From contig JAITFU010000030.1 in assembly GCA_031281125.1 (NCBI GenBank), positions 1 through 41,085 of the forward strand: a stretch of 41,085 nucleotides of DNA, given 5' to 3'. Of this stretch, positions 1,906 through 38,285 are shown piece by piece. The notes under the pieces are model-generated. The model was not told the DNA's origin, searched no databases, and saw only the letters and a list, made by a program, of their open reading frames with translations. Source of the stretch: Prevotellaceae bacterium. Its GTDB lineage: Bacteria; Bacteroidota; Bacteroidia; Bacteroidales; UBA932. The translations under genes were made by a program, and so were the position numbers. The number at the start of each line of letters is the position of its first letter. Position 1 is the stretch's first letter.

Positions 1906-1923
1906 AATCGTATTCTTTTAATA

Positions 1924-7234: not shown

Positions 7235-7373
7235 CACTAAGTTTTCCACCACTCGAAAAAAGATGTAAATTTGCATTTGGTACATGACAAAAATAGAAAA
7301 ATATTTAATTTGAAATAGTTTGAGTAGATTTGTACTCGACCTTGATAGCTAGGGAGAATTGATAAAAAAATTT

Positions 7374-7381
7374 TATCTTTG
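7374..7381 (+). promoter_or_regulatory. -7 promoter box TATCTTTG upstream of the methyltransferase gene
   Basis: TATCTTTG on the plus strand, 50 nt upstream of the ATG at 7431. It lies inside the ORF-track N-terminal extension (7359), which argues against that start. Confidence 0.45.
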
Positions 7382-7430
7382 TAATTTGAGATTAAAGTGT
7401 CAAAAAAAGATATATACTAACTTTAAAGCA

Positions 7431-8537: not shown

Positions 8538-8545
8538 AAACAAAT

Positions 8546-17615: not shown

Positions 17616-17640
17616 CAAGTAAAATTTGCAAGTTAATTCT

Positions 17641-18309: not shown

Positions 18310-18310
18310 T

Positions 18311-18817
18311 ATGCCGCTGAATTTGCTTAAAAAATACAATCAATTATTGGATATTTCAGCAATGAATGAGTTTCAGCGCAAAAAATCGTTGAAAGGCGTG
18401 TTTGACAAGGATATAACCAACAATCACAACTTTGCTTTTCGCACAAAACAGATAAATCCGACACCTGCCGAGGGACAGGATTCAATGGAGCGTCTATTCA
18501 CACATTTAACGACTGTTATTACGGACAAAAGTTCTAATAAACGAGAATTTGATATGGCTCGTTCCGTGCGGTTACATTGGTTGAATTATCATATTGAAGA
18601 AAGTAAAAAAGCAAATATGTTTGTCTTTTCCGTTGCAGAACCAAATGGAACAAGGACTTACATTTACGATAAAGACGAGTTTTATGTGATAGTTTTAGAA
18701 CCAATGCGTAAAGGAAATAATTATTTTTTGCTTTCGGCATATTATCTTGAAGGTAAGGACAAAGCACGTGATAAAATGATGAAAAAGTATAAAAGAAGAT
18801 TGTCGGATGTGTTATAA
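18311..18817 (+). CDS. Hypothetical 168-aa protein, partner of the DUF3800 gene
   Basis: The ORF starts 1 nt after the DUF3800 stop. I recognise no family. The C-terminal beta-rich segment FYVIVLEPMRKGNNYFLLSAYYLEG, followed by a basic helix, is loosely reminiscent of RelE/barnase-like small nucleases (weak). Confidence 0.6.
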   Translation: MPLNLLKKYNQLLDISAMNEFQRKKSLKGVFDKDITNNHNFAFRTKQINPTPAEGQDSMERLFTHLTTVITDKSSNKREFDMARSVRLHWLNYHIEESKKANMFVFSVAEPNGTRTYIYDKDEFYVIVLEPMRKGNNYFLLSAYYLEGKDKARDKMMKKYKRRLSDVL

Positions 18818-18827
18818 AAAACAAAAA

Positions 18828-18850
18828 ACGCAGAACTTCGAGGTTTGCGT
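18828..18850. terminator. Bidirectional hairpin terminator (better on the minus strand)
   Basis: ACGCAGA (18828..18834) pairs with TTTGCGT (18844..18850), including one G-U pair. On the minus strand the hairpin is followed by TTTTTTGTTTTTT. On the plus strand it is followed only by CTTTCGATTTCC. Confidence 0.5.
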
Positions 18851-18891
18851 CTTTCGATTTCCTTTTCTCAAATGAGAAATGAACTCAGCCG

Positions 18892-18899
18892 CAAAGGTA
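18892..18899 (-). promoter_or_regulatory. Orphan -7-like box TACCTTTG between the frr stop and the terminator
   Basis: Plus strand CAAAGGTA. It points toward the 18828..18850 hairpin with no ORF in between. Confidence 0.25.
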
Positions 18900-18977
18900 C
18901 AACTTAATTTGTTATCTGCAAACAAAAAACAAAAAAATTATGGGGACACTCTTCCTCTCCATTGGAACACAGCCGCA

Positions 18978-19544
18978 TCACACCGTCATTATCTCCTTCT
19001 CCTTTGCCACCAACAACTCATCAATCTTCTTTACAAAACCCTCAGTCTCCTTTTGAATCAGCCCCTCGGTATCTTTGGCCATATCCTCGGGTAAGCCCTC
19101 TTTTTGCATCTTTTTGATCACCTCAATCTGGTCGCGGCGAATGTTGCGGACGCTTACTTTTGCTGCTTCGCCCTCATTTTTAGCGCGTTTAACCAATTCC
19201 TTGCGCCGATCTTCTGTCAGCGGAGGTACGTTGATTCTAATCACCTCTCCGTTGTTCTGCGGGGTAAATCCAATGTTGGCAGCAAGGATCGCCTTCTCAA
19301 TCAATGGGATCATCTTCTTTTCCCAAGGCTGAATATACATGGTGCGGGCATCGGGCGTATTGATGCTTGCTATTTGGTCAATTGGCGTTTGAGTGCCGTA
19401 ATAATCAACGGTAACGCCATTAAAAACAGCAGGAGTCGCCTTTCCTGCCCGATAAGTGGCTAACTCTTCTGTAAAGTGAGACACCGCCTTTTGCATCTTA
19501 ACCTTTGCGGCCTCTACTACCTCTTTGGTTTTTGCTATATCCAT
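18978..19544 (-). CDS. frr: Ribosome recycling factor
   Basis: Frame of ORF 18978..19583, with the start moved to MDIAKTKEVVEAAKVKMQKAV (188 aa). RAGKATPAVF, VRNIRRD and the overall RRF pattern are present. The longer start would overlap pyrH. Confidence 0.93.
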   Translation of the reverse strand: MDIAKTKEVVEAAKVKMQKAVSHFTEELATYRAGKATPAVFNGVTVDYYGTQTPIDQIASINTPDARTMYIQPWEKKMIPLIEKAILAANIGFTPQNNGEVIRINVPPLTEDRRKELVKRAKNEGEAAKVSVRNIRRDQIEVIKKMQKEGLPEDMAKDTEGLIQKETEGFVKKIDELLVAKEKEIMTV

Positions 19545-23506: not shown

Positions 23507-23546
23507 GTTATAATTTAGTTGTAATCTTAGTTGGATAAAAAAAATG

Positions 23547-23554
23547 TATCTTTG
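23547..23554 (+). promoter_or_regulatory. -7 promoter box TATCTTTG upstream of the DUF3791 gene
   Basis: TATCTTTG lies 26 nt upstream of the ATG at 23580 and overlaps the ORF-track start at 23544. Confidence 0.45.
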
Positions 23555-23579
23555 CAAATTGACATTAAAAATAGTTTTT

Positions 23580-23828
23580 ATGGAAGCATTAAGGCAAAAA
23601 CACGAACTTGATAGAGAAACGCAAAACAAAGTAGGTTTCATGGCATTCATTATCAATCAATTTGCTCGCACCTATAAAATGAATAGTCAAAATGCGTATT
23701 TGTATCTAAAAAAGTACGGTGGTTTTGATTTTCTTAATGAATGCTGGTGGGCATTGCACACTGATAATCCAATGTGGGCAGTGCGTGATATGTATTTGAT
23801 TTGTGTTCAAAATGGAGGACAAAAATGA
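23580..23828 (+). CDS. DUF3791-family protein (putative antitoxin-like partner)
   Basis: Frame of ORF 23544..23828, with the start moved to MEALRQKHELDRE. FIINQFARTYKMNSQNAYLYLKKYGGFDFL...WWALHTD matches my memory of DUF3791. The stop overlaps the next start (ATGA at 23825..23828). Confidence 0.72.
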   Translation: MEALRQKHELDRETQNKVGFMAFIINQFARTYKMNSQNAYLYLKKYGGFDFLNECWWALHTDNPMWAVRDMYLICVQNGGQK

Positions 23829-24496
23829 AAGTTTATCACGGAAGTTATACGGCAATAGATCAAATTGACCTTAGTCATTGCGAAGTCGGCAAAGATTTTG
23901 GACAGGGTTTTTATGTTACCAAGCTATTTGAACAAGCAGAATTTTGGGCAATTAGAAAAGGCAGAATAAAACGAACTAAAGCAGTTGTTACCGAGTTTGA
24001 TTTTAATGAAAACATTTGTCGTATAATGAAATTCAAAGTGTTGCGTTTTGATGATTATAACGAAAAATGGCTTGAATTTGTTGTGCAAAACAGATTAAAC
24101 GATACCGAACAACAAGCACACGATTACGATATAATTGAGGGACCGGTTGCTGATGACAAAATTACCGAACAAATCAAGGATTATATTGCTGGAATTATTA
24201 CAGAAGAGAAATTTCTTAATGACCTTGTTCATAACCCATCACACCAAATTTGTTTTTGCACAGTACAGTCATTACAATCATTATCGCTCTCAAAAGACAA
24301 AATTGATAGTGCAAAATATCATATTGACAAAGATGTTTTGCAAGCTCTAATGACCGATTATGGAATAGATGAAATTAAAGCAGCCGACCTATACTACACA
24401 TCAAACACTTATACCCAACTTGCCGACGAAACCACAGAATTTTACAAAAAGGATTGGACTAATATATATAAACTTTTGAAACAAGAAATCATTTGA
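23825..24496 (+). CDS. DUF3990-family protein (ADP-ribosyltransferase-like motif pattern)
   Basis: Frame of ORF 23801..24496, with the start moved to MKVYHGSYTAI. The YHGS and DFGQGFYVT motifs are characteristic of DUF3990. DUF3990 habitually sits next to DUF3791. Confidence 0.75.
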   Translation: MKVYHGSYTAIDQIDLSHCEVGKDFGQGFYVTKLFEQAEFWAIRKGRIKRTKAVVTEFDFNENICRIMKFKVLRFDDYNEKWLEFVVQNRLNDTEQQAHDYDIIEGPVADDKITEQIKDYIAGIITEEKFLNDLVHNPSHQICFCTVQSLQSLSLSKDKIDSAKYHIDKDVLQALMTDYGIDEIKAADLYYTSNTYTQLADETTEFYKKDWTNIYKLLKQEII

Positions 24497-24502
24497 CACG
24501 AT

Positions 24503-24545
24503 AAAAAAAAACCGCCCCACAATTGCTTGAAGGGCGGTTTTTTAA
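24503..24545. terminator. Bidirectional rho-independent terminator
   Basis: AAAAAAAAACCGCCC ... GGGCGGTTTTTT. A GC stem (24512..24517 with 24532..24537) is flanked by an A-run and a T-run. It lies between the convergent DUF3990 gene and the beta-barrel gene. Confidence 0.7.
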
Positions 24546-24558
24546 TAATCACAAACTC

Positions 24559-25407
24559 TTAGAAACGAATACCAAATTTTAGTTGCGGCAACGCAAAGAA
24601 AGAAATGGTATGCGCGTTGGCGTTCCAGTTAAGTCCATCTGAATATACACGCGCTAACGTGTACATATAGTTAAATGGACGCACTTCGATCGCCACATTG
24701 AGTCCGGGTAAAAAGTTATACTCAATCCCGGCGGTGATAGCTCCCGTAAAGCCGAAAACTTCACCGGCGCGCTTGTGTGCATAAAAAATTTCGGTCCATA
24801 ATTCATCGCCCAATTCATCGCCTGTATAGGGCAGTGTTACCTGAATCCGAGCGTGCTGAATACTTCCCAATACTCCCAGATAGGGGAAAATACGTCCGTT
24901 ACAATTATTAAAGTAGTAGTTGGTGCCTAAGGCGCCCATCCAGTTGTCCTGGAGGCGGCCCTGTACATATTTTAATCCGGGATAGACGGCATCTCCAAAG
25001 TCAATATACTCTTGATAATGTCTTTGGGGTTGTACGCCTATGTCCATCATAAACATGCCGTTTACTTCCCACCTGTTTGTAATAAAGTATTTTCCCTGAA
25101 TCCCCGCGATGTTTGTAACGGAGTTGTTGTTTAAACTCCCTACGTGGAACACAATCGATGGGTCATCTGACTGATTTTTGGTGAGGCCCTGACCGGCAAT
25201 GCCAAAGTTTGATCCGGAAACGATTCCGGGTAAGAGGTAGGTGTTGTCCTCAATGGGGAAAAAGAGGCCCCTTCCTAACATCAAATTGACTTGCCATTGG
25301 CCCGCACGCGGTGCAAACAGCGCACTTCCGGAGCGTTCCACCGGTTGCGCCAGCAAGGGCGCAACCGTTAGAGCCGCTACAAGAAATATGCTAAGTTTTT
25401 TAGTCAT
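24559..25407 (-). CDS. Outer-membrane beta-barrel protein (small porin/OmpW-like size)
   Basis: 282-aa ORF. SPase-I signal MTKKLSIFLVAALTVAPLLAQ. Alternating hydrophobic beta-strand pattern and a terminal aromatic beta-signal (LKFGIRF). It starts 20 nt after the upstream 1076-aa gene. Confidence 0.75.
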   Translation of the reverse strand: MTKKLSIFLVAALTVAPLLAQPVERSGSALFAPRAGQWQVNLMLGRGLFFPIEDNTYLLPGIVSGSNFGIAGQGLTKNQSDDPSIVFHVGSLNNNSVTNIAGIQGKYFITNRWEVNGMFMMDIGVQPQRHYQEYIDFGDAVYPGLKYVQGRLQDNWMGALGTNYYFNNCNGRIFPYLGVLGSIQHARIQVTLPYTGDELGDELWTEIFYAHKRAGEVFGFTGAITAGIEYNFLPGLNVAIEVRPFNYMYTLARVYSDGLNWNANAHTISFFALPQLKFGIRF

Positions 25408-25427
25408 TCTATCGATAAATTATATTA

Positions 25428-28400
25428 TCAAATTACAAGAGCTAAAATGGTATCTTTTTCTTTGTCCAAAATCTTCAGCTCGGCATCAATAATATCAATG
25501 CGTTCTTGGAGAGAGGCAATATGGGCATCAATATGTTTAACCCTGTTTTCTACAAAATTTGCATGGTCGCTGTCGGCTAAAATCAAACCGTTGTGGTAAA
25601 TGCCAAGGGTATTAAACAACTTGATGTTCTCTTCTGCAGCGGTAAGTTGGGCTTGATACTTGACAAAGTTGTCAAACGCGTCTTTGTAATATGTGGGCGC
25701 CCAAATGTGTGCTGCGGTCTCAGCAATCATGTGGTTGATAACATCAAGCATTGCAAAGTAGTGATTTTCAAATACGTCAGCTTGGAAGTGCATTGCTTTG
25801 ATTTCAAAATCTTTGAATACGCGCTCTTGCTCGGCGGCTACCCACTTGTTGTAGAGGTCTTCTACTACAGGACGCAAGGCGGCAATCTCATCGCTAATGG
25901 CGTCTAACAACTTATGGTAGCTGTTGGCGTCCACGTTCTCGTCATACCAGAATTTGAATTGATTGTAGTTGCGGATGGCAATAAAGGCCCTTGCTGCACG
26001 TGCGGTTGGAATTGCGGGAGCTGTTGTGGAAAATGCAGCCCAACCTGTATTTGCTTCCCAAAGCACGGGATCGCCCAGATAAATGGGGCTGCCAATGTTT
26101 ACCCAACGGTTATACTGTGTTCCGGTCAAGGCTACGCGATGAACGGCAAGGCTGGGATAATAAGCCCACCACCAACTTGTATTGGTACCGATATTATCGC
26201 TCAACTGATCATCTGCAAAATGAATATATTCGTATGGCACAAAATTGCGTGTCCAGTAGAGAACATCCTCTGTTAAATAAGGAGGATAGGTACCGGTGGT
26301 CAACTCGGGCTTAAATTGGAAGTCTTTTGTTGCATCGCCGGGTGTGCCTACTGCAGCTTTGTTAAAATCATCGGTTAGCCATCCGTTGCAGTTTGTGCTG
26401 CCTGTACCCCATTTACGATGGTAGGGAGTGTACAACCTTGCATCTACCGCATTTAGTGTATCTACAGCATTTTGATAACCTATCCATCTGGTTCTAAGAT
26501 TTGCCTCAGCAGTAATCACTAATGCTGAATATGGAGATTTTGCGCCGGAGGGGAACACACGGTTGCCGGCCGCCGGAGCCGTTGCTTTTGTAAGACAGGT
26601 TGCCGTGCTGTAATAGCCGGGGAAGTTTACGGCGGTGTATTTCAAAAAGTCTGTTCTAATTTGAAGGTCGGCATCTGTATAACCGCTTGAGTTGATAGAA
26701 ATCACGTTGCCAATGTTAATCATGCCAGGGTTCTCCAACAAAACGTAGAGCAGGAACCAAATATGGTACTCCCAAGGTTGGCTCACGCCATACTTGCCCA
26801 TAATGGGGCCTTCATTTTTAAGAATTTCCAACATTTCGGCTTGTGTGTAGCCCACAGTCGCTAATTTGATAGGATCAATTGCTCCTTGGAAGAAAAGGTA
26901 GTTAGCATAATAAGTAGGCATTAATTCTGCAACGGCGGCAACAAGGTCATAAGTGTAGGCATATCCCAAAATCATATTGATCAGGTCTTGGAATGCTTTT
27001 ACATTTTTACCTGTCCACAAAAGCTCCAACAATCCGCCGGGGTTAAAGGTAATCCCGCCCAATACGTCAGAAATTTGCAAATGTTTGTCTAACTCCAATT
27101 TCCAATCTAAGTCAATCTCGCCTTCTTCAAAGAGTAAATATTTTACATTTTTTACGTAGGTAGAGATCAAATGGGTCAGCACCAAATATTTGAAGTTAAG
27201 GGTGCTCATATTGGCGATCGCAAGCACCTTTTCTGCCCTTAAATCAGGATTGGTAACGCCATCTTTGTTCATTGTGGCCACCAGTTCCATTAAAGCTTTT
27301 GCGCCTGCCTCAATCTGTGCTTGGGTAAATTCAATTTTGTTGTTGGTGCCCTTTAGGAACCCATACAAACCAGTAAATGCATCTACTGCATCGTCGTAGG
27401 TATCAGATGTTGCTTTCCAATAGTCTGGCGTGATAGCTATGGCATAGTTGGTCCTCCATTTGGTCATGTCGTTGTTGAAGTTGGCAATAGCAGTAGTCAT
27501 ATCTTTGTCCCTCTTATCCAAATTTGCTTTTGCTAATGCCTCACCCTCAACGCCTCTGATAATGCGGTTTTTCTCAATATAGATTGAGTCTAAGATCAAC
27601 TGCTCCATGGTGTTTTTAGCGCCCAATTGTGCTTTTGCTCCAAACGGCTCGCCTTCGGCATAGAAAGAATAGGTGTTGTTAACAACGCCGGTAAAGATGG
27701 TTACGTTTTTGGCACCAAGACTGTGGTTCAACCCTTGGTTAACAACGCTACCAATTCTAAAGAAGTCGTCTGCCACTTTGGAGAATACGTTCTCAACAAT
27801 GGGGGTGTGCAATCCGCCGCCGTATTTGTAATCGAGTTCGGCGTCAGAAACTTTTTTCTTAAGTTCTTCTAAGTTAAATTGCTCCATGTCGGCTGCAAGG
27901 CGAAGCTCGGTTGATTTGGCAAACGCCTCTTTAAGATCTTGCTCCACTTTGGGCAAATAGCTCTCAAATTGATCAATGGCAAGGTCTTTAAGTTCTTCCC
28001 ACATGTTTAAGGCGTGCTCGGCAATGTTAAATAGAAACTGAGCTTGCTCAAGTTCATAAGCCAAAATAGCCTCAATTTTGGGCACTTCAACGGCTAAGTA
28101 CATGATCCTTCTGGCCATCCACTCGGCAACTTGGGCCTCTAAGCCGGCTTTTTCAATAATCAACGCCCTCATCTTGGTTATGATACGGTCGCAGTTTGTG
28201 ATCTTTGCTTTTTCCAAATCCTTCTCTAACTTGATAATTTCCTCATACCATAGATAGATAGCCTTGACGCCTTTGCGCTTCTCGGCTGCCAACTTGTTGA
28301 GTTCCTTCTCAATCATCACATTTAGTTTGGCAATTTCGTAATCGATTCTTGCTTGCAGAACGGCTTTTTCAAACTCATTTGCGAGTTTTTCTCTTTCGTT

Positions 28401-28658
28401 CTCAGTCTTTTTGAGTTCGGTAAGGGCGTCAACATATTTAGCTCTTGCCTTTACATAGTCGGCAGCGGCTAAAATAAATGATGCTTTTGCGTCCTCAACA
28501 ACAATTTTAGCTAACGTAAGTTTAGCCTGTGCTCTCAGAAGCTCAGCTTTGGCCATTCGCATCTCAAGGACGCCTTCCGGCTCCTTATTGTCGATACAGC
28601 CAACGAACAGTGCGCCTATCAACGTAAAGGCCGCACACAGTTTTAAAAATTTTTTCAT
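25428..28658 (-). CDS. Very large lipoprotein with N- and C-terminal coiled coils, function unknown
   Basis: 1076-aa ORF. Lipobox LIGALFVGC followed by an acidic IDNKEPEG. About 270 aa of heptad-rich A/K/E/L sequence at the N-terminus and about 170 aa at the C-terminus. The W/Y/N/G-rich central region has no family I recognise. Confidence 0.8.
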   Translation of the reverse strand: MKKFLKLCAAFTLIGALFVGCIDNKEPEGVLEMRMAKAELLRAQAKLTLAKIVVEDAKASFILAAADYVKARAKYVDALTELKKTENEREKLANEFEKAVLQARIDYEIAKLNVMIEKELNKLAAEKRKGVKAIYLWYEEIIKLEKDLEKAKITNCDRIITKMRALIIEKAGLEAQVAEWMARRIMYLAVEVPKIEAILAYELEQAQFLFNIAEHALNMWEELKDLAIDQFESYLPKVEQDLKEAFAKSTELRLAADMEQFNLEELKKKVSDAELDYKYGGGLHTPIVENVFSKVADDFFRIGSVVNQGLNHSLGAKNVTIFTGVVNNTYSFYAEGEPFGAKAQLGAKNTMEQLILDSIYIEKNRIIRGVEGEALAKANLDKRDKDMTTAIANFNNDMTKWRTNYAIAITPDYWKATSDTYDDAVDAFTGLYGFLKGTNNKIEFTQAQIEAGAKALMELVATMNKDGVTNPDLRAEKVLAIANMSTLNFKYLVLTHLISTYVKNVKYLLFEEGEIDLDWKLELDKHLQISDVLGGITFNPGGLLELLWTGKNVKAFQDLINMILGYAYTYDLVAAVAELMPTYYANYLFFQGAIDPIKLATVGYTQAEMLEILKNEGPIMGKYGVSQPWEYHIWFLLYVLLENPGMINIGNVISINSSGYTDADLQIRTDFLKYTAVNFPGYYSTATCLTKATAPAAGNRVFPSGAKSPYSALVITAEANLRTRWIGYQNAVDTLNAVDARLYTPYHRKWGTGSTNCNGWLTDDFNKAAVGTPGDATKDFQFKPELTTGTYPPYLTEDVLYWTRNFVPYEYIHFADDQLSDNIGTNTSWWWAYYPSLAVHRVALTGTQYNRWVNIGSPIYLGDPVLWEANTGWAAFSTTAPAIPTARAARAFIAIRNYNQFKFWYDENVDANSYHKLLDAISDEIAALRPVVEDLYNKWVAAEQERVFKDFEIKAMHFQADVFENHYFAMLDVINHMIAETAAHIWAPTYYKDAFDNFVKYQAQLTAAEENIKLFNTLGIYHNGLILADSDHANFVENRVKHIDAHIASLQERIDIIDAELKILDKEKDTILALVI

Positions 28659-28771
28659 GCATTAAAAATTTAAGTTAAACAATAATTTTTTAAGTTGTTA
28701 TAATTGATTTGTATTTAGTTGTTTATTACATATTTAGCGTTATCGGTCACTTTTAAGGTCAATATCGAGCG

Positions 28772-28779
28772 CAAAGTTA
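28772..28779 (-). promoter_or_regulatory. -7 promoter box TAACTTTG inside the 174-nt gap upstream of the 1076-aa gene
   Basis: Plus strand CAAAGTTA, 114 nt upstream of the ATG at 28658. This is the only sizeable intergenic gap in the five-gene cluster. Confidence 0.35.
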
Positions 28780-28832
28780 TAATATTTTTTGATACGACAA
28801 TAAAAAATGTGAAAAAGTTGTTGAAAAATTTT

Positions 28833-31460
28833 TTAAGGTTCCAACAAACTCCCCGTTCTTTGGAGCAAAATATTGACGCCCGGGTTCCAGTAAACGGAAT
28901 AATTGGGATGATCCTTTATGGCCTGCGGAATGGTTCCCGTCAAACTGTTTGCGTTTACTTTTAGGATGGAGAGGTTGTGGAAATAGAAGATGTTGTCGCT
29001 ATCCTTACCGCCCCACTCCGCGGGAATATTGCGCCCCGATGTTGCATTGGCAAAACTGCACCCCGACAGATTAAGCTCCTGTAAATACCTAAGTTTGTAC
29101 AGATTTACGGGAAGCTCTCCCCCCAACCCAATGTTGCCCGACAAATTGAGCTTTTGGAGCCATGTTAACTCCTCTAACGGTATTCTGCTCACTACCGGCC
29201 CGTTCTCCAACACCCCAAAGAGGTTGAATCCGGGCAAAGAGATCTCCGATACCCGTCTCTCTCCCTCCATTACAACGGGATTAAACCCAATACCGGCCCA
29301 CTCTGCAACAGGTCTGTTGAGTTCCCACCGCTCTTTCCACACCACTCCGCTTAACCCAATGTAGAGCCGCGTCAATACGGTGCTGTCGGCAACCGATATG
29401 GTTGCGCCTCTTTGCACAAGAGTAAAGGTGGTATCAACCGCTTTTTCGCCGTTTATATTTTTAAAGGTAATGTGGGCGGTTCGGGGCGATAGTTGGCCGG
29501 TGGGCGCAAAGGTAAAGCTGTACCGCTGCTTGGCAATGGTATCTGCCGGCTTGATGGTTACCCAGCTCTCCATTCCGCTGTTTTTAAAGGCAATGGGATA
29601 ATTTGCGTTGATCATAAGGGTTACGTCTCCCCCTTTACCGTGCATACTTTGTGCCGATGGGGTGATGGTCACCTTGGGAACAAGGCCGCCCTGCACAATC
29701 TGTACCTCTTCTTTTAATGTCCCGCCCGTTTGGGTAATGGTCACTTTTCCTTCCCTTGGGGTGAACGATGGGTTGGAGAGGATATTGATTCTAATGACAG
29801 AGTCAACAAGGGGCGCTTTGGTAACAGGCGCCTTCTCAATCACAATCCAGGTGGCAGAGGCCGATGCGCTCCAAGGTACATTGGCGGTAACGGTCAAGTT
29901 GTGAGAAGATTCATCACCGGTGGTTTCGATTTTGTTTGTCTGCGCTTTTAGATACTCATCTCCTGCTTGTTGACGCACTGTCAATACCACTTTATGGGTG
30001 GCGCTTGTAATGGTCACGTTGGCCGATCTGGGGGCGCTGTTTGTATTGGGCGTAGCGGCACAAGAGAGCGCCTCTGTCTGTAACCCTTTGGTAACGGGGC
30101 TTCTTGATACCGTAAGCCACGGCTGATCCACCGCAAAATCCCAAGTGTCGTTGGAGGTGATAAAGAGATACGTTACTTTGTTTGGATCGGTACCGCCCTC
30201 TTTGCCAATGGGATGCGTATTTAAGTAGTCCTGATCGGGCGTTACGCTCAGTTGCGGGGCCGATGCGTTTTGCGTTAGTTTATAAGCCCTTGTATAGTTG
30301 CTGCTTACCTGTTTTATGATGATGTTGGTCGATCGGGTAGTCAAATCGTCGTTGGTTGCCACCTTAAGGGTAAAGGTGTTGCTGTTGCTGACCTTGCCTA
30401 CGTCGCTGACCCAAGAGGCAGGGGCGTTGTTTCCCGTTGTATCGACATCCCATACAAAGTTGGCATCCACCTCAATTGAATACCTTTGATTGGTTGCGGT
30501 TCCCGCCGCCGAAACGTTCACGCTCTCCGCAGGCGTAAAACTGATGGTGGGCGTTGTTGGACCCTGTACCACCGTAAGCGTACTTTTCACACTTGACTCG
30601 GGGAATCCTTTTCCGGTGAACTGTACAAGCGCCGTGCGCTCGTCTGCAAGGCCGTTTGGCTCCACAAAAAGAATGCAGGTTGAGTCCTTCTTCGCCTTGG
30701 TTTCTATACTCTCTACCACTTTTACCCAGCTATGAGTAGAGGTGGCCGTCCAGGGGACGTTGGAGATAATATCAAAGGTGATGTATCCTCCGCCCACCTC
30801 CACAGGTTGTGTATGCGACTCCTGAGGCAGCAAAATTTCGGGTTTCTCTCCCAATTGCGTTACGGTAAATTGTTGCGACAGCGATCCGCCCCTCTGCTTA
30901 AAGGTGATCTTTGCACTTCTGGCAGCCAAATCGGTGTTTTGGCTTGCCCTAAATATACGTTTGTTGTCCGCCACCGTCTTGGTTCCCGTAATCTCAGTCA
31001 CCCACAACCCCTCTATGGTAATATCCACCTCCACATTTGTTGTCAGCATCACCTCAAATTCTTTCTGTTCAGCGTCAAACGCTATGGCATCCTCTTTTAG
31101 AGACAACACCGCCGCCTCTCCCCTTTGCGTCACCTTTACCTCCTGTCTAATCTTATCTCCCTGAAGGATAAAACTTGCCTGACGCGGAGTCAACGTAACG
31201 TTGGGTGTTACCATAATATCCAACTCCGTATCTCCATAGTTTTTTGTGGGCGACACGCTGAGCCAAGTGGCCGAAACATCTACCACTGTCCACATTCCGT
31301 TTGAAGTAACAAAAATAGTAGCCGGCGTATATTGCTCCGCATCCACCTCAATCGAACTCCGCGAGACGTTTAAAAATTCATCCGCTCTCTTCATGCACCC
31401 CAAAAAGGCAAGGGCAACAAGAGGCAATAAAAAGTAGGTTTTTCTCCAATGTGCTTTCAT
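28833..31460 (-). CDS. Surface lipoprotein with at least 7 BACON-like Ig domains and a C-terminal plant-type leucine-rich-repeat domain
   Basis: 875-aa ORF. Lipobox LVALAFLGC. Repeated W..V/WLSV...N....R.A.I.. units (for example ATWLSVSPTKNYGDTELDIMVTPNVTLTPRQASFILQG). C-terminal LQKLNLSGNIGLGGELPVNLYKLRYLQELNLSGCSF...LSILKVNANSLTGTIPQAI. Confidence 0.85.
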   Translation of the reverse strand: MKAHWRKTYFLLPLVALAFLGCMKRADEFLNVSRSSIEVDAEQYTPATIFVTSNGMWTVVDVSATWLSVSPTKNYGDTELDIMVTPNVTLTPRQASFILQGDKIRQEVKVTQRGEAAVLSLKEDAIAFDAEQKEFEVMLTTNVEVDITIEGLWVTEITGTKTVADNKRIFRASQNTDLAARSAKITFKQRGGSLSQQFTVTQLGEKPEILLPQESHTQPVEVGGGYITFDIISNVPWTATSTHSWVKVVESIETKAKKDSTCILFVEPNGLADERTALVQFTGKGFPESSVKSTLTVVQGPTTPTISFTPAESVNVSAAGTATNQRYSIEVDANFVWDVDTTGNNAPASWVSDVGKVSNSNTFTLKVATNDDLTTRSTNIIIKQVSSNYTRAYKLTQNASAPQLSVTPDQDYLNTHPIGKEGGTDPNKVTYLFITSNDTWDFAVDQPWLTVSRSPVTKGLQTEALSCAATPNTNSAPRSANVTITSATHKVVLTVRQQAGDEYLKAQTNKIETTGDESSHNLTVTANVPWSASASATWIVIEKAPVTKAPLVDSVIRINILSNPSFTPREGKVTITQTGGTLKEEVQIVQGGLVPKVTITPSAQSMHGKGGDVTLMINANYPIAFKNSGMESWVTIKPADTIAKQRYSFTFAPTGQLSPRTAHITFKNINGEKAVDTTFTLVQRGATISVADSTVLTRLYIGLSGVVWKERWELNRPVAEWAGIGFNPVVMEGERRVSEISLPGFNLFGVLENGPVVSRIPLEELTWLQKLNLSGNIGLGGELPVNLYKLRYLQELNLSGCSFANATSGRNIPAEWGGKDSDNIFYFHNLSILKVNANSLTGTIPQAIKDHPNYSVYWNPGVNILLQRTGSLLEP

Positions 31461-31480
31461 ATAGTATAATTTGGTTCGAC

Positions 31481-34312
31481 TTATTTAGACCCCATATAGT
31501 ACACCACTATACGGTCGCCATCGGCAATAAAGAGGTAGTTGTTCTTAATTGCCATGCCTTTGGGATGATTGAGGGTCCCGTCTGCGGGGACAAATTCATG
31601 GATTTCATAGTTGGCATTGGCGCCCGTAAGGGTTGGCGGAGCAAGCGGGAGGCGGGGCGGCGGCGGATAAAAGCCGTATGCCGCAGAGAGGGCGTTGTTA
31701 AACGGGCTCCATCCTGAGTACGTTACCGATACAATCCGTCCTTTGTTAAGGAGGGTCTCGCCATCGTCGCAAGATACCAATACACGGCCTCCCATGAGTG
31801 GATTATTGTCAAAAATAACGCTGTGGCAATGGTCTAATATAACGGGATTACTTGCCGTAACATCTGTTTTGTCTTGTCCGGACTGTCCCGGTGTAACTAA
31901 TTCCCAACGAAATCCACTTTTACTCCATGGTGGACTTGACGGCGCCGGATATTCCGGGGTATGTGGATAATCGTCCCGTAGATACCTTGCACCTCCGCCC
32001 TTTCCGCCATAATTAATATGGCGCGAATAGAGACGACCCCTGTCCACCACCCATGAAGTAGTGCCTACGCCCGCAACCTCGCCAAACGCAATACCTGTAG
32101 GATTGGTTGGACTCCAGTCGTACCACCAACCCTGTGCAGAGTTTACACGCGGTATCCGGCCGGTAACCCATCCGGCCACGGTGCTCCACGGATTTCCCAA
32201 ACCATCTACAAAATTATCCATCTGCTGGTAAAGCGATCCCAACAACTCATGCGGCGCAATGGCGCCTGCACGGGTGCCGTTTAAGTTGCCCCAATCGGGC
32301 AACCCTTCCCAAGCTTGAATAATCGTTTGAAAATCAGGAATCCGCACACCCCAATCATCAAAATGGGTAATCAATTCGTAAAGAGCGTCAAGGGCAACGG
32401 TTATGCTGTTGTCAAATCCCGTTACCTGCGAAACAGCGTCCAAGAAGTTGAGATATTCAATAATCTGGTCATTTTTAATCACTTTCTTTATATTGTCGAT
32501 CTCAAGGATCTCTACTATTGTCTTTATCTTGTTCAACATATTGCCATCATCTAAAGCAGTAACCAATCTGTCATACTGACTACGCTCCGACACCAATGCA
32601 AAGGGATTTCCGGTTTCCTGATCCTTAAATTTAAGCAGATGAAGCGTAAGGGCCAACTTTTGGTTCATGGTACGATCATCCAAAGCATTGTAACTATTGG
32701 CAAAATCGGGACTAATAGGCACTCCGTATTCAGCTATCGGCTTGGGAGTTCCATCGGATTTCCATGGATTCCACGGCTCCTCGCCGGTCGGGGACAACAC
32801 GTATGGACGCTGGGGAAGCTCCCCAAACTGATCCTTATAGGTGCCGTTTAGCGAAAGAATGCCGCCCGGTTTGCGGTACTCGTTAATGACGCTTAACCAT
32901 GCTTCGTAATTTTTAAAGTTGGTGGTGATTAGCTCTGCATTAATGACACTATTCACAGGGCCTGTGATATACCCGTTTTCTGCAATCCAAACCATTATAC
33001 CTTCGGTAGCTATATCTTTAAGACTCAGCACCGTGGGGTCAGTATCGGGGTTGCCGCTCCAAAACCAACTAATCGGTGGAATGGTTGCAGCAGTATTTAC
33101 TATCCCTCTTACTCCACCATAAACTTGGTCTCGTACATAAGGCACCAAATAATTCATCGCTTCGTTCCGTAAAGTTGTCACAATGTTATCTATAAGTCCG
33201 GTATCTGAAAGGAGCCCGTCCACCAAATCTTTAATAATTGACTCGTCCACCTCAAGCAAACCATACCACAAAGTGACCAAATGCAGGCCCCATTGCGGCG
33301 TAAGGGTCAGCTCTACGGGAACATAAATGGTCAGGTCAAAATCAATGTTGAAATTAATGGGGATAATTGCAATATTAAAAAAATTTATATTCCAACTAAC
33401 AGGAATATGAATAGGTATGATAAACGGTATGGAATTGGGAGAGGGCAACAGAAACCTCAGAAAATCCAAAGCATCTGTCGGCAAATCAATATTATAATCA
33501 AATGTCACAAAGTTCTCCAACATTTCAAGCGGCAAATCCTCAAGATCCATCTTTAGATTTCCATTGTCATCAATCAGATTGTCCAAAAATCCATCGGGTA
33601 AATAGAGGTGAAACTGTCGGGCAATATTGAGCATTGTCCCGTAGTCCATATTGCTAAAGTCCGCGTTTCCCAAAGCCAAATCCACCAGAAACTGAAACTC
33701 TTTGGGCACAAGATTTTCAATTGCGCCCAAAGTTTTGCTGATCCGATCCGTGGTATTTATGGTCATTCCTTCCAAATCGCTGTTGGCCGCATAGTAAAGG
33801 CTTCCGTTATACACCGTTAGGGCGTTAAAGCTGCCGCGTGGCGCCACAAAGAGCTTTTGGGCGGGGCAATTAAAAAAACGACTGTGCCACGATTCGGTAG
33901 CTTGCGTCACATAAATCACCTGATCAGAGGTCCACTTGTGGGTGGTGGCGCCCGGCTTGGGATCGCCCGACGAACCAATAAACAAGGTGTTGTTGGCCCC
34001 CGCCGCGATTCCATTGGCGCCCGGCACCTTAGCGTAAGGTACCGCCGTGGCGGTACGCGAAAGTTCCATCAAATTAGATATGTCAAACCTATAGACCTGA
34101 TCCTGTTTGGGTGCAGTGGCATACAAATGGTTGCCGTCAACGGCCAGCGATGTCACCTCAACCCCTTCGGGCAGATAGATCACTTGTGGCGGCGCACCGG
34201 GGCGGGTGGGGTCATCCATGGAGTTCTTTGTGGGGGCATCCATGGTGGGGTTGCAGGCGGTGGTGAGGAGGGCGGCACTCAAAACAAAGGGTTTAAAATA
34301 TAGTGTTTTCAT
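31481..34312 (-). CDS. Large lipoprotein of unknown function with propeller-blade-like N- and C-terminal segments
   Basis: 943-aa ORF. Signal/lipobox FVLSAALLTTAC. NHL/SMP-30-like strings appear at both ends (NHLYATAPKQDQVYRFD; HPKGMAIKNNYLFIADGDRIVVYY). The central ~500 aa are unrecognised. It starts 8 nt after the upstream gene and ends 20 nt before the downstream gene. Confidence 0.8.
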   Translation of the reverse strand: MKTLYFKPFVLSAALLTTACNPTMDAPTKNSMDDPTRPGAPPQVIYLPEGVEVTSLAVDGNHLYATAPKQDQVYRFDISNLMELSRTATAVPYAKVPGANGIAAGANNTLFIGSSGDPKPGATTHKWTSDQVIYVTQATESWHSRFFNCPAQKLFVAPRGSFNALTVYNGSLYYAANSDLEGMTINTTDRISKTLGAIENLVPKEFQFLVDLALGNADFSNMDYGTMLNIARQFHLYLPDGFLDNLIDDNGNLKMDLEDLPLEMLENFVTFDYNIDLPTDALDFLRFLLPSPNSIPFIIPIHIPVSWNINFFNIAIIPINFNIDFDLTIYVPVELTLTPQWGLHLVTLWYGLLEVDESIIKDLVDGLLSDTGLIDNIVTTLRNEAMNYLVPYVRDQVYGGVRGIVNTAATIPPISWFWSGNPDTDPTVLSLKDIATEGIMVWIAENGYITGPVNSVINAELITTNFKNYEAWLSVINEYRKPGGILSLNGTYKDQFGELPQRPYVLSPTGEEPWNPWKSDGTPKPIAEYGVPISPDFANSYNALDDRTMNQKLALTLHLLKFKDQETGNPFALVSERSQYDRLVTALDDGNMLNKIKTIVEILEIDNIKKVIKNDQIIEYLNFLDAVSQVTGFDNSITVALDALYELITHFDDWGVRIPDFQTIIQAWEGLPDWGNLNGTRAGAIAPHELLGSLYQQMDNFVDGLGNPWSTVAGWVTGRIPRVNSAQGWWYDWSPTNPTGIAFGEVAGVGTTSWVVDRGRLYSRHINYGGKGGGARYLRDDYPHTPEYPAPSSPPWSKSGFRWELVTPGQSGQDKTDVTASNPVILDHCHSVIFDNNPLMGGRVLVSCDDGETLLNKGRIVSVTYSGWSPFNNALSAAYGFYPPPPRLPLAPPTLTGANANYEIHEFVPADGTLNHPKGMAIKNNYLFIADGDRIVVYYMGSK

Positions 34313-34320
34313 GGCGATGT

Positions 34321-36534
34321 TTAATTTTGTTTAACAGGAATTGTTAAGTTTAGCGAACCATCTGTGTTGGGTACTGAAATAGTGATTGTCCAGTTAGCAG
34401 TAAATATTGTGAGGTACTGGCCGGGCCGCACATTAAAAGTGGAAGGAAGTGTGCATACGGTTGGAAATGAGACAGTAAGGTTATATGTGATTAAGCCAAC
34501 ACCGACGTGTGATCCTATCCATTGTTGAGAACCAATATAACCGGACAGGGAAAGAGATGCGGCACCAGGGGCTGTATTTGGGAAACTACCTGATCCAAAT
34601 GAAAATGAAGTCGGATTTGCGATCAAATACCAAGTCGCATCCTGAGATACTGATACTGATTTGTTGAAAGAAGAGTATGCAGGATTATCAGCGACGATCT
34701 GCAGAAAGTCATCCCTACCACTCTGTAAATTTGATTGATTGCCATTATTCACTGCCCTAAAATTATACGTCCATGAATCTCCGCCGTTATGAACCAAAGA
34801 TTTTTCCAACCACCAAATATCGGGAACAGAAAAGGCAAAATTACACTCAAATGTAATGGCCTGCCACAGAGCGCCTGCACCTGCAAACTGAACGGTTGGA
34901 GCACCACCGGTAATTGCACAATGAGGCACAAAAGCGTCCTGTGTAACGGTAAACCTACTCTGTTCTATATTGTTGCACTTAATAATATATGTGGCAGAAT
35001 AAGCATTTGTAGTTTCGTTTGCGATAGTTGGATATACGTATATGGTTTGCTGCCTGACCACCGTTTCCGGATTGTCAGACATCACGCTAACTGTAAACAT
35101 ATTATGGTCTCCGGCGCCCTCTGCCTCAATGGTCCATGGATGGTTGGCCTCAATGGTAAAGGATGGAGTAATACCGACCTGAAAACCGCCGTTAGAAGCA
35201 GCAAAATTGTATGGACCGGACACATTGGTAACAAAATGCAACAATTTCACGGGCTGCTCAATCGTCAACACCCTGATTAAGTCATTGACCGGCGACCCTT
35301 GAATAACCATACCTCCGGAAAAAGTGACCTCAGCAGTCCGTGGTACCGTAAGGCTGGGGTTGGGTGCAATGGTAAACTTGATGGTTTCTGCCACTTCGTC
35401 AATGCCCATGGTCAGGTTGGCCTCTGTTGGGGTAACAGCTTTGACCCAGTCGTCACCCAGAGTGATCTCTGCCTCCCAGTTGCGGTTGCTCTCCGACACA
35501 AGCCACACCTCAAAATCATTGGGGATATTGCCAGGGTTAAGCGCCGGAACAGAAAGAAGATAATCAGAATATGAAAAATCGCCAAAATTTGGTGAGCCCG
35601 GATCTTTTTCAAAAACAATATAGGGACTTACCGTAAGTTGCTTGATTTCTAAAGTTTTGGCGCTAATATTACCCACGCCTCCATCCATAACAATCTCAAT
35701 TTTTGCGGTTCGCGGATAACGGGTTGATGTATTGGCAAGTAGGGTCAGCCATACCGGCACCTCTCCGGTAGCGTCTGTGGAAAAGGAGATGGATAGGCCG
35801 TTGCCGTCCGGGGTGGCTGTAGCCGTACCGTCCAATAATCCAACTGATAACCACAAACTCACATCCTCATTGGCATTTACGCCGGTGGGCTTAACGGTAA
35901 GCGTCCACGACCTAAGAGTGTGTACTTCAAAACGGCGCGTCTCCTCGCCTCCAACACCGCTGCCCGTTCCGGCAAAAAGAATAAAGGCCGGGGTAAAGGG
36001 GTATTGCGTTGCTTTAATCTTGTCTTCCTTATATTTTTCGATAAAATTGCCGTCATAGTCAAAGAGATCCAAATCCTGTCCCATCATATTCCGCACCACA
36101 TGAATCTTCACCGTCAAGTTGGGGTTCCCGTTGTTGCGGAGTATCAAATCAAACGACTGAACAAAGGGGTGGTCGTTGTTGGCTTTGTTGGTGAAAGTCA
36201 TTGTTTTGTCGGTGACTACGCCGGTTACGGCGCCGGCAAAGATGCCAATGCTGAAACAGGAAGGAATAGAGACTTCGCACCAGTTTGGGATGCTGTAAAA
36301 AGAGGCTTTGTCAATGTACCAATAGTTGGTGGTGTTAATATCGATTGTAACGGCAGAGCCTTGGGCGCCATTAAGATAAACTGTTGCCTCTTTGGCATAC
36401 TTGCTGTCGGGTTCGCCCTGCTGTTTGACCAACAGACGCGCATCGGGACCCTCGTACGCGTCTCGCGCACAAAAGCCTACGCCCGATGTTAAGATCGCAA
36501 TCAGAGACAAATGTATAAATGAAGATATTCTCAT
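34321..36534 (-). CDS. Large lipoprotein with several BACON-like/Ig-like domains, function unknown
   Basis: 737-aa ORF. Signal MRISSFIHLSLIAILTSGVGFC. BACON-like units, for example WLSVGLLDG...PVWLTLLANTSTRYPRTAKIEIV and DWVKAVTPTE...IAPNPSLTVPRTAEVTFSGG. Confidence 0.8.
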   Translation of the reverse strand: MRISSFIHLSLIAILTSGVGFCARDAYEGPDARLLVKQQGEPDSKYAKEATVYLNGAQGSAVTIDINTTNYWYIDKASFYSIPNWCEVSIPSCFSIGIFAGAVTGVVTDKTMTFTNKANNDHPFVQSFDLILRNNGNPNLTVKIHVVRNMMGQDLDLFDYDGNFIEKYKEDKIKATQYPFTPAFILFAGTGSGVGGEETRRFEVHTLRSWTLTVKPTGVNANEDVSLWLSVGLLDGTATATPDGNGLSISFSTDATGEVPVWLTLLANTSTRYPRTAKIEIVMDGGVGNISAKTLEIKQLTVSPYIVFEKDPGSPNFGDFSYSDYLLSVPALNPGNIPNDFEVWLVSESNRNWEAEITLGDDWVKAVTPTEANLTMGIDEVAETIKFTIAPNPSLTVPRTAEVTFSGGMVIQGSPVNDLIRVLTIEQPVKLLHFVTNVSGPYNFAASNGGFQVGITPSFTIEANHPWTIEAEGAGDHNMFTVSVMSDNPETVVRQQTIYVYPTIANETTNAYSATYIIKCNNIEQSRFTVTQDAFVPHCAITGGAPTVQFAGAGALWQAITFECNFAFSVPDIWWLEKSLVHNGGDSWTYNFRAVNNGNQSNLQSGRDDFLQIVADNPAYSSFNKSVSVSQDATWYLIANPTSFSFGSGSFPNTAPGAASLSLSGYIGSQQWIGSHVGVGLITYNLTVSFPTVCTLPSTFNVRPGQYLTIFTANWTITISVPNTDGSLNLTIPVKQN

Positions 36535-36656
36535 AGATTTTGGTTTTATTTATCTGCTATTATATGATGCTGCTTCCCCTCAAAACGCTGCATGAAGGGT
36601 CGGTTTTTCTAAAATTTTTAACAAAACTATACACTTTTTCTAATATAGGTATCGGG

Positions 36657-36664
36657 CAAAGATA
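36657..36664 (-). promoter_or_regulatory. -7 promoter box TATCTTTG for the minus-strand surface-protein operon
   Basis: Plus strand CAAAGATA, about 123 nt upstream of the ATG at 36534. It forms the left arm of an 11-nt inverted repeat with the plus-strand promoter. Confidence 0.45.
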
Positions 36665-36725: not shown

Positions 36726-38285
36726 ATGTCACGCATCCGTTTTTTTAACACAACAGGTCCCTGCAACCCCAACGACCACTATATGTTGCCGCCAAAAGAG
36801 CGCTTGGTGGGCGCTCAGTTGCATCGCTATCTTCGCGACAGCCTCTATTGGGTACTTCATGCGCCAAGACAAACCGGAAAAACCACATTTTTACAAAGTT
36901 GGATGCGGGAGATCAACGCTACAGAATCATACGTGGCCTGCTACGTAAGCGTAGAGACGTGTCAGGGCATTTCCAACGCCGAGATTGCCTTTCCTACCAT
37001 CTGCAACGCTATTAAGTTTTTCGCGACATCATTTGAAGTTCCTGTCCCACAAACAAATGACACAAATTCAATTAGTTTGTTCGGCAGCATGTTGCACGAA
37101 TGGTCTAAGTTGGTTGCACCAAAGCCTTTGGTTGTTCTTTTTGACGAAGTGGATGTTCTTCAGGACGAGACGCTTATCACCTTTTTGCGCACACTGCGCG
37201 GCGGTTTTGCCTCTCGTGGGGTTGGGACGTTTCCTGTTTCGGTCGTATTGGTGGGGATGCGCGATCTTAAAGATTACATCGCGGCATCAAAGGGAGGATT
37301 TTCGCCCAATCCGGGATCTCCGTTTAATATTAAAGCCGATTCGGCAGTCATCACCAATTTTTCCAAAGAGAATATAACCCGACTCTTTGCACAACGAACG
37401 GAGGAGACAGGGCAACAGATTGCTCCGGATGCCCTTGATTATGTGTTTGAACAGTCCAAAGGACAACCATGGATTGTAAACAGCCTCTTCGCAAGGGCTA
37501 CCATGCGTGTGTTGGACGAAAATTGTACCCAAACCGTGACCCTTGACCACATCAGGGAGGCGCGTCAACAAATGATCTTAGCGCGAGAAACGCACTTAGA
37601 TGCATTGGCCTATCGACTCGATAATCCACAAGTTCGCAACATTATGCAATCTTTAATGAGCGGTGAGCCCGATCCCACAATGGCAAACAGCGAAGCATTT
37701 CGTCTCTGCTTGGACCTGGGTTTGGTGTCGCTTGATCAAGGGATGCCGCAGGTGACCAATCCTATTTACCGCGAAATCTTGGCACGTCAGATGACCTTTG
37801 GCCCCCAAATGGCCATTCCAATACCCGAATGGCAGTGGCAACTCGCCGATGGTAACTTAAATATGGATAAGTTGCTGCACGAATTTCAAGTTTTCTGGCG
37901 CCGCCATGCCGATATTTGGGAAGAAAAATCTGACTACTCAGAAGCGTTTCCCCATTTGCTGTTGATGGCCTTTTTGCAACGTGTGCTTAACGGTGGTGGG
38001 CGTATCGAACGCGAATATGCCGCCGGCCGTGGCCGAATGGATTTAGCAGTCGAATTTAATTACAAGTGGTTTATCATAGAGATCAAATTGATACACGATT
38101 ATGATGCGCCGCAAACCGTCGAAGAGGAGGGATTGGAACAAATCTCACGTTATCGCGACAAGATCGATCCTGCCGCCCAATCCTACTTAGTAATCTTTGA
38201 TCGCCGTTCAAAATCGCTACAAACTCCTTGGGCCGACAGGATCCAATGGCGTATGGTCGGCGATATTGCTGTTTTGAGCTGCTAA
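36726..38285 (+). CDS. AAA/ORC-like ATPase with a C-terminal PD-(D/E)xK nuclease-like domain
   Basis: 519-aa ORF. Characteristic N-terminus FFNTTGPCNPNDHYMLPP. Walker A HAPRQTGKTTFL and Walker B LVVLFDEVD. C-terminal GRGRMDLAVEFNYKWFIIEIKL (D...E.K). Confidence 0.8.
   Translation: MSRIRFFNTTGPCNPNDHYMLPPKERLVGAQLHRYLRDSLYWVLHAPRQTGKTTFLQSWMREINATESYVACYVSVETCQGISNAEIAFPTICNAIKFFATSFEVPVPQTNDTNSISLFGSMLHEWSKLVAPKPLVVLFDEVDVLQDETLITFLRTLRGGFASRGVGTFPVSVVLVGMRDLKDYIAASKGGFSPNPGSPFNIKADSAVITNFSKENITRLFAQRTEETGQQIAPDALDYVFEQSKGQPWIVNSLFARATMRVLDENCTQTVTLDHIREARQQMILARETHLDALAYRLDNPQVRNIMQSLMSGEPDPTMANSEAFRLCLDLGLVSLDQGMPQVTNPIYREILARQMTFGPQMAIPIPEWQWQLADGNLNMDKLLHEFQVFWRRHADIWEEKSDYSEAFPHLLLMAFLQRVLNGGGRIEREYAAGRGRMDLAVEFNYKWFIIEIKLIHDYDAPQTVEEEGLEQISRYRDKIDPAAQSYLVIFDRRSKSLQTPWADRIQWRMVGDIAVLSC

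Follow-up and report, generated by a model that had tools for sequence, protein, structure and literature searches.

What is known of surface-layer (S-layer)-type lipoproteins in Bacteroidota comes from one studied protein, BT1927, and from its paralogues in Bacteroides of the human gut, which modulate phage and complement resistance. Bt1927 is a 100-kDa S-layer surface lipoprotein, and Bt1926 is a predicted 8-stranded protein regarded as its putative anchor or secretion partner (Silale 2025, PMC12578637). BT1927 combines a strongly conserved N-terminal segment of ~48 amino acids (aa) with a divergent remainder and an adjacent barrel (Taketani 2015, PMC4611039). Eight S-layer-like lipoprotein/OmpA-like loci occur in B. 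thetaiotaomicron, all phase-variable and linked to phage survival (Porter 2020, bioRxiv 10.1101/521070). Here we analyse a cluster of six genes, P1–P6, on contig JAITFU010000030.1 of a Prevotellaceae bacterium, an uncultured Bacteroidales; unless another locus is named, coordinates below are positions in this 41,085-nt stretch (the window). Two of its genes, P4 and P5, have a recognisable relative in the BT1927/BT1926 pair.

We put a probability of roughly 0.6 on the reading that this locus specifies a protein coat covering the outer membrane on its external side, expressed constitutively and evolving fast, in which P4 and P5 act like BT1927 and BT1926. The reading builds on features that can be read from the sequences of this and related loci: homology of the P4 N-terminal module and of the barrel, synteny, conserved promoters and terminators, and an asymmetry in evolutionary rate. 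From these we infer surface exposure, docking of P4 onto P5, lattice formation, a role in protection from phages or predators or in adhesion, and participation of P1–P3 and P6.

A preliminary description of the cluster, made from the sequence alone, had reported five co-directional minus-strand open reading frames of 737, 943, 875, 1076 and 282 aa, separated by 8 (P1–P2), 20 (P2–P3), 174 (P3–P4) and 20 nt (P4–P5); on re-reading, all coordinates are as it gave them and the gaps are exact. It had found only generic modules nameable in the cluster, thus missing the BT1927/BT1926 relationship of P4–P5, and it had overlooked a sixth conserved gene, P6. The six genes are as follows.

P1, 34321-36534, minus strand: 737-aa putative lipoprotein with a BACON/immunoglobulin (Ig)-like domain; optional member
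P2, 31481-34312, minus strand: 943-aa lipoprotein with a split beta-propeller and a helix-rich insert; optional member
P3, 28833-31460, minus strand: 875-aa lipoprotein with seven BACON repeats and a C-terminal plant-type leucine-rich repeat (LRR) region; core member
P4, 25428-28658, minus strand: 1076-aa lipoprotein (122 kDa) with a BT1927-type N-terminal module, coiled coils and a family-specific body
P5, 24559-25407, minus strand: 282-aa OmpA_like outer-membrane beta-barrel, probably 8-stranded; presumed P4 anchor
P6, 22896-23477, minus strand: 193-aa small lipoprotein; sixth conserved member

The N-termini of P1–P4 are hydrophobic and end, as had been described, in a lipobox Cys, which is kept in every orthologue, and P5 is indeed a barrel of the signal peptidase I type with a terminal Phe (signal LLA/QP, C-terminus ...GIRF).

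A BT1927-type module and barrel in P4–P5

The relationship to BT1927 lies in the N-terminus of P4, which carries the conserved module of that family: a signal peptide, the lipobox Cys and an extended conserved peptide. The NCBIfam model NF053619 (BT1927 family outer membrane S-layer protein) matches P4 residues 1-125 at 34.5 bits, against a curated equivalog cutoff of 1300 bits, and gives no match in the other members of the P4 family. The P4 homology search also returned a protein, P0007, that is a clear BT1927 homologue (BT1927_fam, 268 bits, profile positions 209-945). Aligned to it with hhalign, the P4-family profile reaches a probability of 98.6% and 46% identity over residues 2-97 only, and the N-termini of P4 and P0007 have the motif GCIDNxEPxG...R.AKAEL in common. 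Acidic residues follow the lipobox Cys in the translated sequences; such residues fit the surface-export signal of Bacteroidota.

The barrel points to the same pair. A small OmpA_like barrel directly downstream is characteristic of BT1927/BT1926-type loci, and P5 starts 20 nt past P4. It matches Pfam OmpA_like (PF16961) at 37.2 bits, above the gathering cutoff of 26.6, over profile positions 92-195 only, and over its full length it shares 34% identity (E 7e-59) with the OmpA_like barrel immediately 3′ of P0007 and 35% (E 6e-56) with the one immediately 3′ of P0008, a BT1927-like protein.

Past this module, the ~980 remaining residues of P4 are, on sequence comparison, a separate and rare family. 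A word-indexed search finds five full-length relatives of P4 at 31-35% identity, and an exhaustive profile search of 1.84e9 representative proteins finds 517 at E<=0.001, among which ~20 are full-length family members. Among the 150 matches listed, those other than the ~20 full-length members are mostly proteins of 750-1150 aa that align from residue 1 over ~100-300 aa, and 5 of 10 such N-terminal-only matches that were tested match the BT1927_fam N-terminus. P4 has no match in Pfam, and nothing significant comes from sequence searches of the PDB, whether with P2, P4 and P5 one by one or with the family profiles A1, A2 and A3. A full-length relationship between P4 and BT1927 was considered and rejected: hhalign yields an end-to-end match at low mact, which vanishes once the first 100 residues are removed. 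The AlphaFold2 (AF2) model of P4, built on a 6-sequence alignment, is poor, with a predicted local distance difference test score (pLDDT) of 47; at this low confidence it shows long helical stretches, 28-278 and 886-1075, with a region of mixed structure between them.

A conserved core at a constant chromosomal site

P4 homologues occur in ~17 distinct loci (numbered with the prefix L below), in which P3 lies directly upstream and P5 directly downstream wherever the contig reaches. The conserved core of these loci is P3, P4 and P5, usually followed by P6; P1 and P2 are optional. The adjacency of P3 and P4 is kept in the distant locus L031, at 28% identity. The chromosomal site is likewise constant, with a divergent tetratricopeptide repeat (TPR) gene and holB on one side and a gene for a 155-aa membrane protein (m155), a hemN-like gene and pyrH on the other, and it is conserved in L031 even with holB at 35% identity.

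P1 and P2 are present in the window and in L010/L027, L011, L012 and L023. They are absent from L002 and L025, where the TPR gene abuts P3, and from L031, where an M16-like peptidase fills the slot. The preliminary description had expected its five-gene block to be syntenic in related genomes: P3–P4–P5 are contiguous, and the lack of P1–P2 in three loci limits the unit, by that description's own refutation criterion, to P3–P4–P5 plus P6.

The sole match among species-representative genomes is the Bacteroidales metagenome-assembled genome (MAG) Emb289P3bin89, recovered from a humus-feeding termite, Embiratermes neotenicus (P3 hindgut). A metagenome scan returned 14 JGI contigs, one of which (Ga0123356_10019387) is the very contig of that MAG match. 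Related loci come from the gut of higher termites where their origin can be traced.

The earlier suggestion of a dedicated cell-surface assembly, distinct from a polysaccharide-utilization locus (PUL), is strengthened by the homology of P4–P5 to an S-layer pair in the N-terminal module and the barrel; its assumption of a single five-gene unit is not. That description had seen no glycoside hydrolase, SusC/D, protease or type IX secretion system (T9SS) C-terminal domain. We agree: SusC/SusD pairs, glycan-active enzymes and proteases have no Pfam or NCBIfam match in P1–P6, the PDB sequence searches with P2, P4 and P5 are empty, and no T9SS C-terminal-domain family is matched at E<=0.1 in a Pfam scan of the cluster. 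PHROGs and PADLOC give no match for any of P1–P6, and Rfam gives nothing credible on the cluster. Domain content and the conserved chromosomal position together rule out a PUL, T9SS cargo, a pilus and phage-derived or mobile cargo.

Three apparent transcription units

The regulatory features of the locus are as follows.

-7 promoter box of P1-P2-P3, 36657-36664, minus strand: TATCTTTG, Bacteroidota type, read directly in the sequence
Leader motif, 36566-36594, minus strand: CRTGCARC-N-TTTTG...TGCRTC, downstream of the first promoter
Internal -7 box of P4-P5, 28772-28779, minus strand: TAACTTTG, in the 174-nt P3–P4 gap
AU-rich leader, 28659-28683, minus strand: ATTGTTTAACTTAAATTTTTAATGC, ~25 nt abutting the P4 start codon
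Bidirectional intrinsic terminator, 24503-24545, not assigned to a strand: GC hairpin closing the P4–P5 unit
-7 box of P6, 23499-23506, minus strand: TATATTTG, 21 nt before the P6 ATG

The cluster begins at the promoter box and ends at the strong bidirectional terminator that had been described, the latter with a predicted fold of -26 kcal/mol (z -5.3), an A-run on one flank and a T-run on the other. The genes between them had been taken as one co-transcribed set. That picture is not supported: the P3–P4 gap contains a promoter conserved in all nine loci examined, a TA(A/T)CTTTG box with an upstream T-run, 83-113 nt before the P4 ATG. An equivalent of the first box, TA(T/C)CTTTG, lies 76-122 nt 5′ of the first gene in six loci; a GC hairpin with a T-run also follows P5 in other loci; and TAnnTTTG stands 21-23 nt 5′ of the P6 ATG in seven other loci. 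There thus appear, from these sequence signals, to be three transcription units, P1–P3, P4–P5 and P6. Since the stretch between P3 and P4 has no evident terminator, read-through is possible and may add to P4–P5 expression.

The two leaders are themselves conserved. In six loci whose proteins share only 32-49% identity, the CRTGCARC motif downstream of the first promoter retains invariant columns; it may form a short hairpin or serve as a dyad binding site. The ATTGTTTAACTTAAATTTTTAATGC leader of P4 is nearly invariant in L002, L004, L005, L010-L012, L030 and L031, including L031 with its holB only 35% identical, and its conservation exceeds that of the P4 body. It is predicted to be unstructured (minimum free energy -2.6 kcal/mol, z +1.8) and may thus be an element of translation initiation or of regulation. 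A hairpin at the P4 start codon was rejected, the region being predicted to be less structured than shuffled sequence.

The P4 promoter is oriented towards P4 in 9 of 9 loci. Near either promoter there is neither a GTTAC-N7-GTAAC site nor 22-bp inverted repeats of the BT1927 type, and no recombinase is found among the annotated open reading frames of the window. Inverted repeats do flank the P4 promoter; they are AT-rich A5T5 low-complexity sequence, overlap the MKKFLK codons and differ in position between loci. On these three grounds we reject a phase-variable promoter. A separate observation concerns L007, where (positions 9787-10000 of that locus) the gene of the BT1927-like P0008 has a fixed TATCTTTG promoter and a leader in which TTTTACTAATACAT is repeated, and lacks a GTTAC-N7-GTAAC site; BT1927-like loci without inversion therefore occur in another lineage too.

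Companion lipoproteins

The modules previously named in the cluster (BACON repeats, LRR, propeller blades and coiled coils) are borne out by Pfam matches and AF2 models. BACON (PF13004) matches P3 at 128 bits in 7 stretches and P1 at 30.9 bits in one stretch, both above the gathering threshold. The LRR_1 match in P3 is weak, and searching for homologues of this LRR region brought up just one fragment. In P1, the residue at position -1 before the lipobox Cys is unusual, being F, Y or N.

P2 has no Pfam or NCBIfam match and ten homologues at 37-48% identity. In its AF2 model (pLDDT 64), a helix-rich insert of ~540 aa divides a propeller into two parts, residues ~40-175 and ~724-939, and Foldseek against the PDB gives weak, generic matches to 6-blade propellers (E >= 3e-3).

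P6, which has no Pfam match, represents a ~200-aa lipoprotein found 3′ of P5 in nine other loci (L004, L005, L010/L027, L011, L014, L023, L024, L028 and L031); the window P6 shares 38% identity (E 1e-40) with the product of the gene that immediately follows P5 in L010. In the window, P5 and P6 are separated by an inserted DUF3791/DUF3990 pair (94 and 231 aa; 23544-24496, plus strand; GC 37-39%), which lies between the P5 terminator and P6. The DUF3990 protein has matches among PADLOC's candidate defence systems (PDC-M13B, M13A and M10A; E 1e-46). At the other end of the cluster, an AAA ATPase/PD-(D/E)XK_9 gene (36726-38285, plus strand) is inserted between the TPR gene and P1, in contrast to all related loci; its promoter stands back-to-back with that of P1, the two forming an inverted repeat (36654-36673/36687-36706).

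Rapid divergence of the lipoproteins

P5 orthologues are 63-78% identical. Identity to the window is 63-77% for P5 and 60-72% for holB, against 26-35% for P4, 35-49% for P3, 42-51% for P2 and 32-37% for P1, and the lipoproteins diverge ~5× faster than the barrel and the housekeeping neighbours. The asymmetry is also present between the most similar loci. In the closest pairs, L023/L027 and L004/L005, P5 is 93% and 90% identical, P4 63% and 51%, and P3 63% and 54%; nonsynonymous divergence (dN) is 0.28-0.43 for P3/P4 versus 0.04-0.05 for P5, and its ratio to synonymous divergence (dS) is ~0.2 gene-wide for P3/P4 versus 0.07 for P5. The dS of P3/P4 in these pairs runs from 1.2 to saturated, ~2× that of the adjacent P5 (0.59-0.65), which hints at allele exchange between conserved flanks; alternatively, saturation or an alignment artefact may account for it.

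Each lipoprotein has one conserved part, the rest being variable. In P4 this is the first 50 aa (63% conservation, elsewhere 18-41%), in P3 the C-terminal LRR (48-60%), in P2 the parts of the propeller (47-69%, versus 12-41% in the insert) and in P1 the N-terminal 150 aa (46-56%, versus 18-35% in the remainder).

A proposed arrangement of the coat

In the arrangement that we propose, P4 residues 1 to ~100 (signal peptide, lipobox Cys, CIDNxEPxG motif and the start of the coiled coil) would direct surface export and docking onto P5, and the variable ~980-residue body would project outward and form the coat. P4 and P5 would be driven by their own strong promoter and the unstructured AU-rich leader, and closed off by the terminator. 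P3, with a BACON stalk and an LRR head, together with P6 and P1/P2, would be accessory lipoproteins of the cell surface, using their conserved parts to join the structure or decorate it and presenting the variable ones to the outside. Among the loci, P1 and P2 occur in one sub-lineage, P3 lies always directly upstream of P4, and P6 usually downstream of P5.

A more far-reaching version is tentative, and we hold it to be possible rather than probable. It takes the ~100-residue N-terminal module as a portable 'display handle' with which Bacteroidales set bodies of ~1000 residues, unrelated to one another, on a single conserved small barrel. In the present Bacteroidales lineage the handle would be joined to a new body family; P3 and P6, with or without P1/P2, would dock through conserved bases to make a multi-component constitutive coat; and, at one unchanging chromosomal position, exposed parts would be swapped out or diversified. 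The roughly doubled P3/P4 dS is a hint of allele exchange.

Comparison with described systems

The likeness to BT1927/BT1926 (PMC4611039, PMC12578637) comprises the gene order, a surface lipoprotein of ~100-120 kDa followed directly by a small OmpA_like barrel; a homologous N-terminal module; barrels 34-35% identical to those beside BT1927-like proteins; and a conserved N-terminus on a divergent body. The differences are as definite. The P4 body lacks detectable similarity past residue ~100; the promoter is fixed and conserved here, without the 22-bp inverted repeats, the GTTAC-N7-GTAAC site or adjacent tyrosine recombinases; and the upstream neighbour is always the BACON-LRR lipoprotein P3, some loci having P1/P2 as well. 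In the BT1927-like loci L007 and L015, the barrel is followed by a small protein and an OmpA (PF00691) gene, whereas here P6, a small lipoprotein of another kind, comes after it.

The seven further B. thetaiotaomicron loci, such as BT1826 (10.1101/521070), are likewise a diverse lipoprotein-barrel family with variable bodies, linked to phage resistance. Those loci are multi-copy, recombinase-controlled and OFF by default; by contrast, the present one belongs to another Bacteroidales lineage, occurs as a single locus defined by its position and, in all contigs seen, is assembled in the ON state. In other Bacteroidota surface-lipoprotein/barrel complexes (PMC12578637), a partner outer-membrane barrel also holds surface lipoproteins, but that partner is a 22-stranded TonB-dependent transporter, whereas here it is a small barrel with no uptake function.

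PUL and crAss-like phage proteins carry the same BACON domain (PF13004) as P3, with its seven repeats, and P1, with one, where it probably provides Ig-like spacers; here there is no catalytic domain, the C-terminus of P3 is a plant-type LRR and the surroundings are those of an S-layer-type pair instead of a PUL. The S-layer of Tannerella forsythia, likewise from the order Bacteroidales, consists of two large proteins, TfsA and TfsB, exported by the T9SS through a C-terminal domain; the proteins described here differ in being lipoproteins without a T9SS C-terminal domain. The kind of system is thus already known, and what sets this variant apart is the body family, the fixed single locus, the lack of phase variation and the associated BACON-LRR, propeller and small lipoproteins.

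Alternative readings

Several observations weigh against a BT1927-like coat. The NF053619 score of P4 is far below the curated cutoff, and from residue ~100 to its end P4 has no body homologous to that of the BT1927 family: against a 17-member BT1927-like alignment, the best hhalign result for this part is a probability of 26% over 68 columns, so that lattice formation is not transferable by homology. At pLDDT 47, the P4 model gives no evidence of fold. The invertible promoter and recombinase that are the hallmark of the Bacteroides loci are not found here. P1, P2, P3 and P6 have no direct tie to the barrel; P1 and P2 are dispensable in related genomes, and P6 sits behind a terminator with a promoter of its own. 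Finally, the fast divergence may come partly from the low constraint typical of coiled coils (gene-wide dN/dS ~0.2).

The main rival reading takes only P4–P5 as a functional unit, with P1, P2, P3 and P6 as independent surface lipoproteins, such as adhesins for particles, fibres, glycans or the host, gathered at a tolerant site. The separate promoters of P1–P3, P4–P5 and P6 and the terminator 3′ of P5 fit it, as do the absence of P1–P2 from L002, L025 and L031, the generic binding or spacer character of BACON, LRR and propeller modules, and the lack of P1–P3-like genes in the BT1927-type loci L007 and L015. However, P3 adjoins P4 in every locus examined, including L031 at 28% identity, read-through from P3 into P4 is possible with no terminator evident between them, and the two genes are matched in divergence, with dS similarly raised relative to P5. 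We regard this reading as possible, yet doubtful. A reading on which P5 is a secretion partner and P4 is shed to the medium or to vesicles as an effector or decoy has a precedent, because the same two-partner export was proposed for BT1927–BT1926, with BT1927 found in culture supernatant (Taketani 2015, PMC4611039), and the choice between 'anchor or secretion partner' has since been left open (Silale 2025, PMC12578637). It is nevertheless improbable: a ~260-residue, 8-stranded barrel would, judging from known barrel pore sizes, be too small to pass a 120-kDa protein, and BT1927 has been imaged as a cell-attached lattice.

Two further readings are less likely still. The fixed position next to holB, pyrH, frr and hemN-like genes, the lack of phase variation and the long coiled coils of P4 would suit a core envelope scaffold, a structural tether within or below the outer membrane, but the ~5× faster divergence of the lipoproteins relative to the barrel and housekeeping neighbours is atypical of internal scaffolds, and P4 shares its N-terminal module with a demonstrated surface protein, BT1927, and acidic residues follow the lipobox Cys; we consider such a scaffold very unlikely. 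Least likely of all is a non-canonical nutrient- or glycan-capture system with the BACON-rich proteins as glycan binders. BACON domains are frequent in PUL proteins, and a SusC/D pair lies elsewhere in the window (289-5037), but it is ~20 kb away and not syntenic with the locus, and the cluster and its relatives have no SusC/D, TonB-dependent transporter, glycoside hydrolase or regulator.

Other features of the window

Outside the locus, a type II restriction-modification pair (7359-9709, plus strand) in an island of 35-37% GC consists of an EcoRI-like adenine methyltransferase and a GmrSD_N/HNH nuclease (PADLOC REase_II, 6e-83). A minus-strand gene (9744-12146) encodes a prolipoprotein diacylglyceryl transferase (Lgt, residues 13-262) with a fused C-terminal extension of ~540 aa, which has an InlB B-repeat-like domain and a weak, sub-threshold match to a beta-helix repeat. 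A DUF3800 protein (17626-18309, plus strand) matches PDC-M04A, a candidate defence system in PADLOC (6e-80), and the adjacent 18001-19000 bin has a GC content of 34.5%.

Implications

On the evidence of this locus, the lipoprotein-barrel module reaches well beyond Bacteroides, here in a form that is non-phase-variable and fixed in position, with a different body and conserved companions. The locus offers a natural experiment in which the anchor (residues 1 to ~100 and the barrel) can be set against an exposed, fast-evolving surface, and the unannotated families of P2, the P4 body and P6 gain a context. For these gut Bacteroidales, the coat would be a candidate determinant of interactions with phages or predators, or of attachment to particles.

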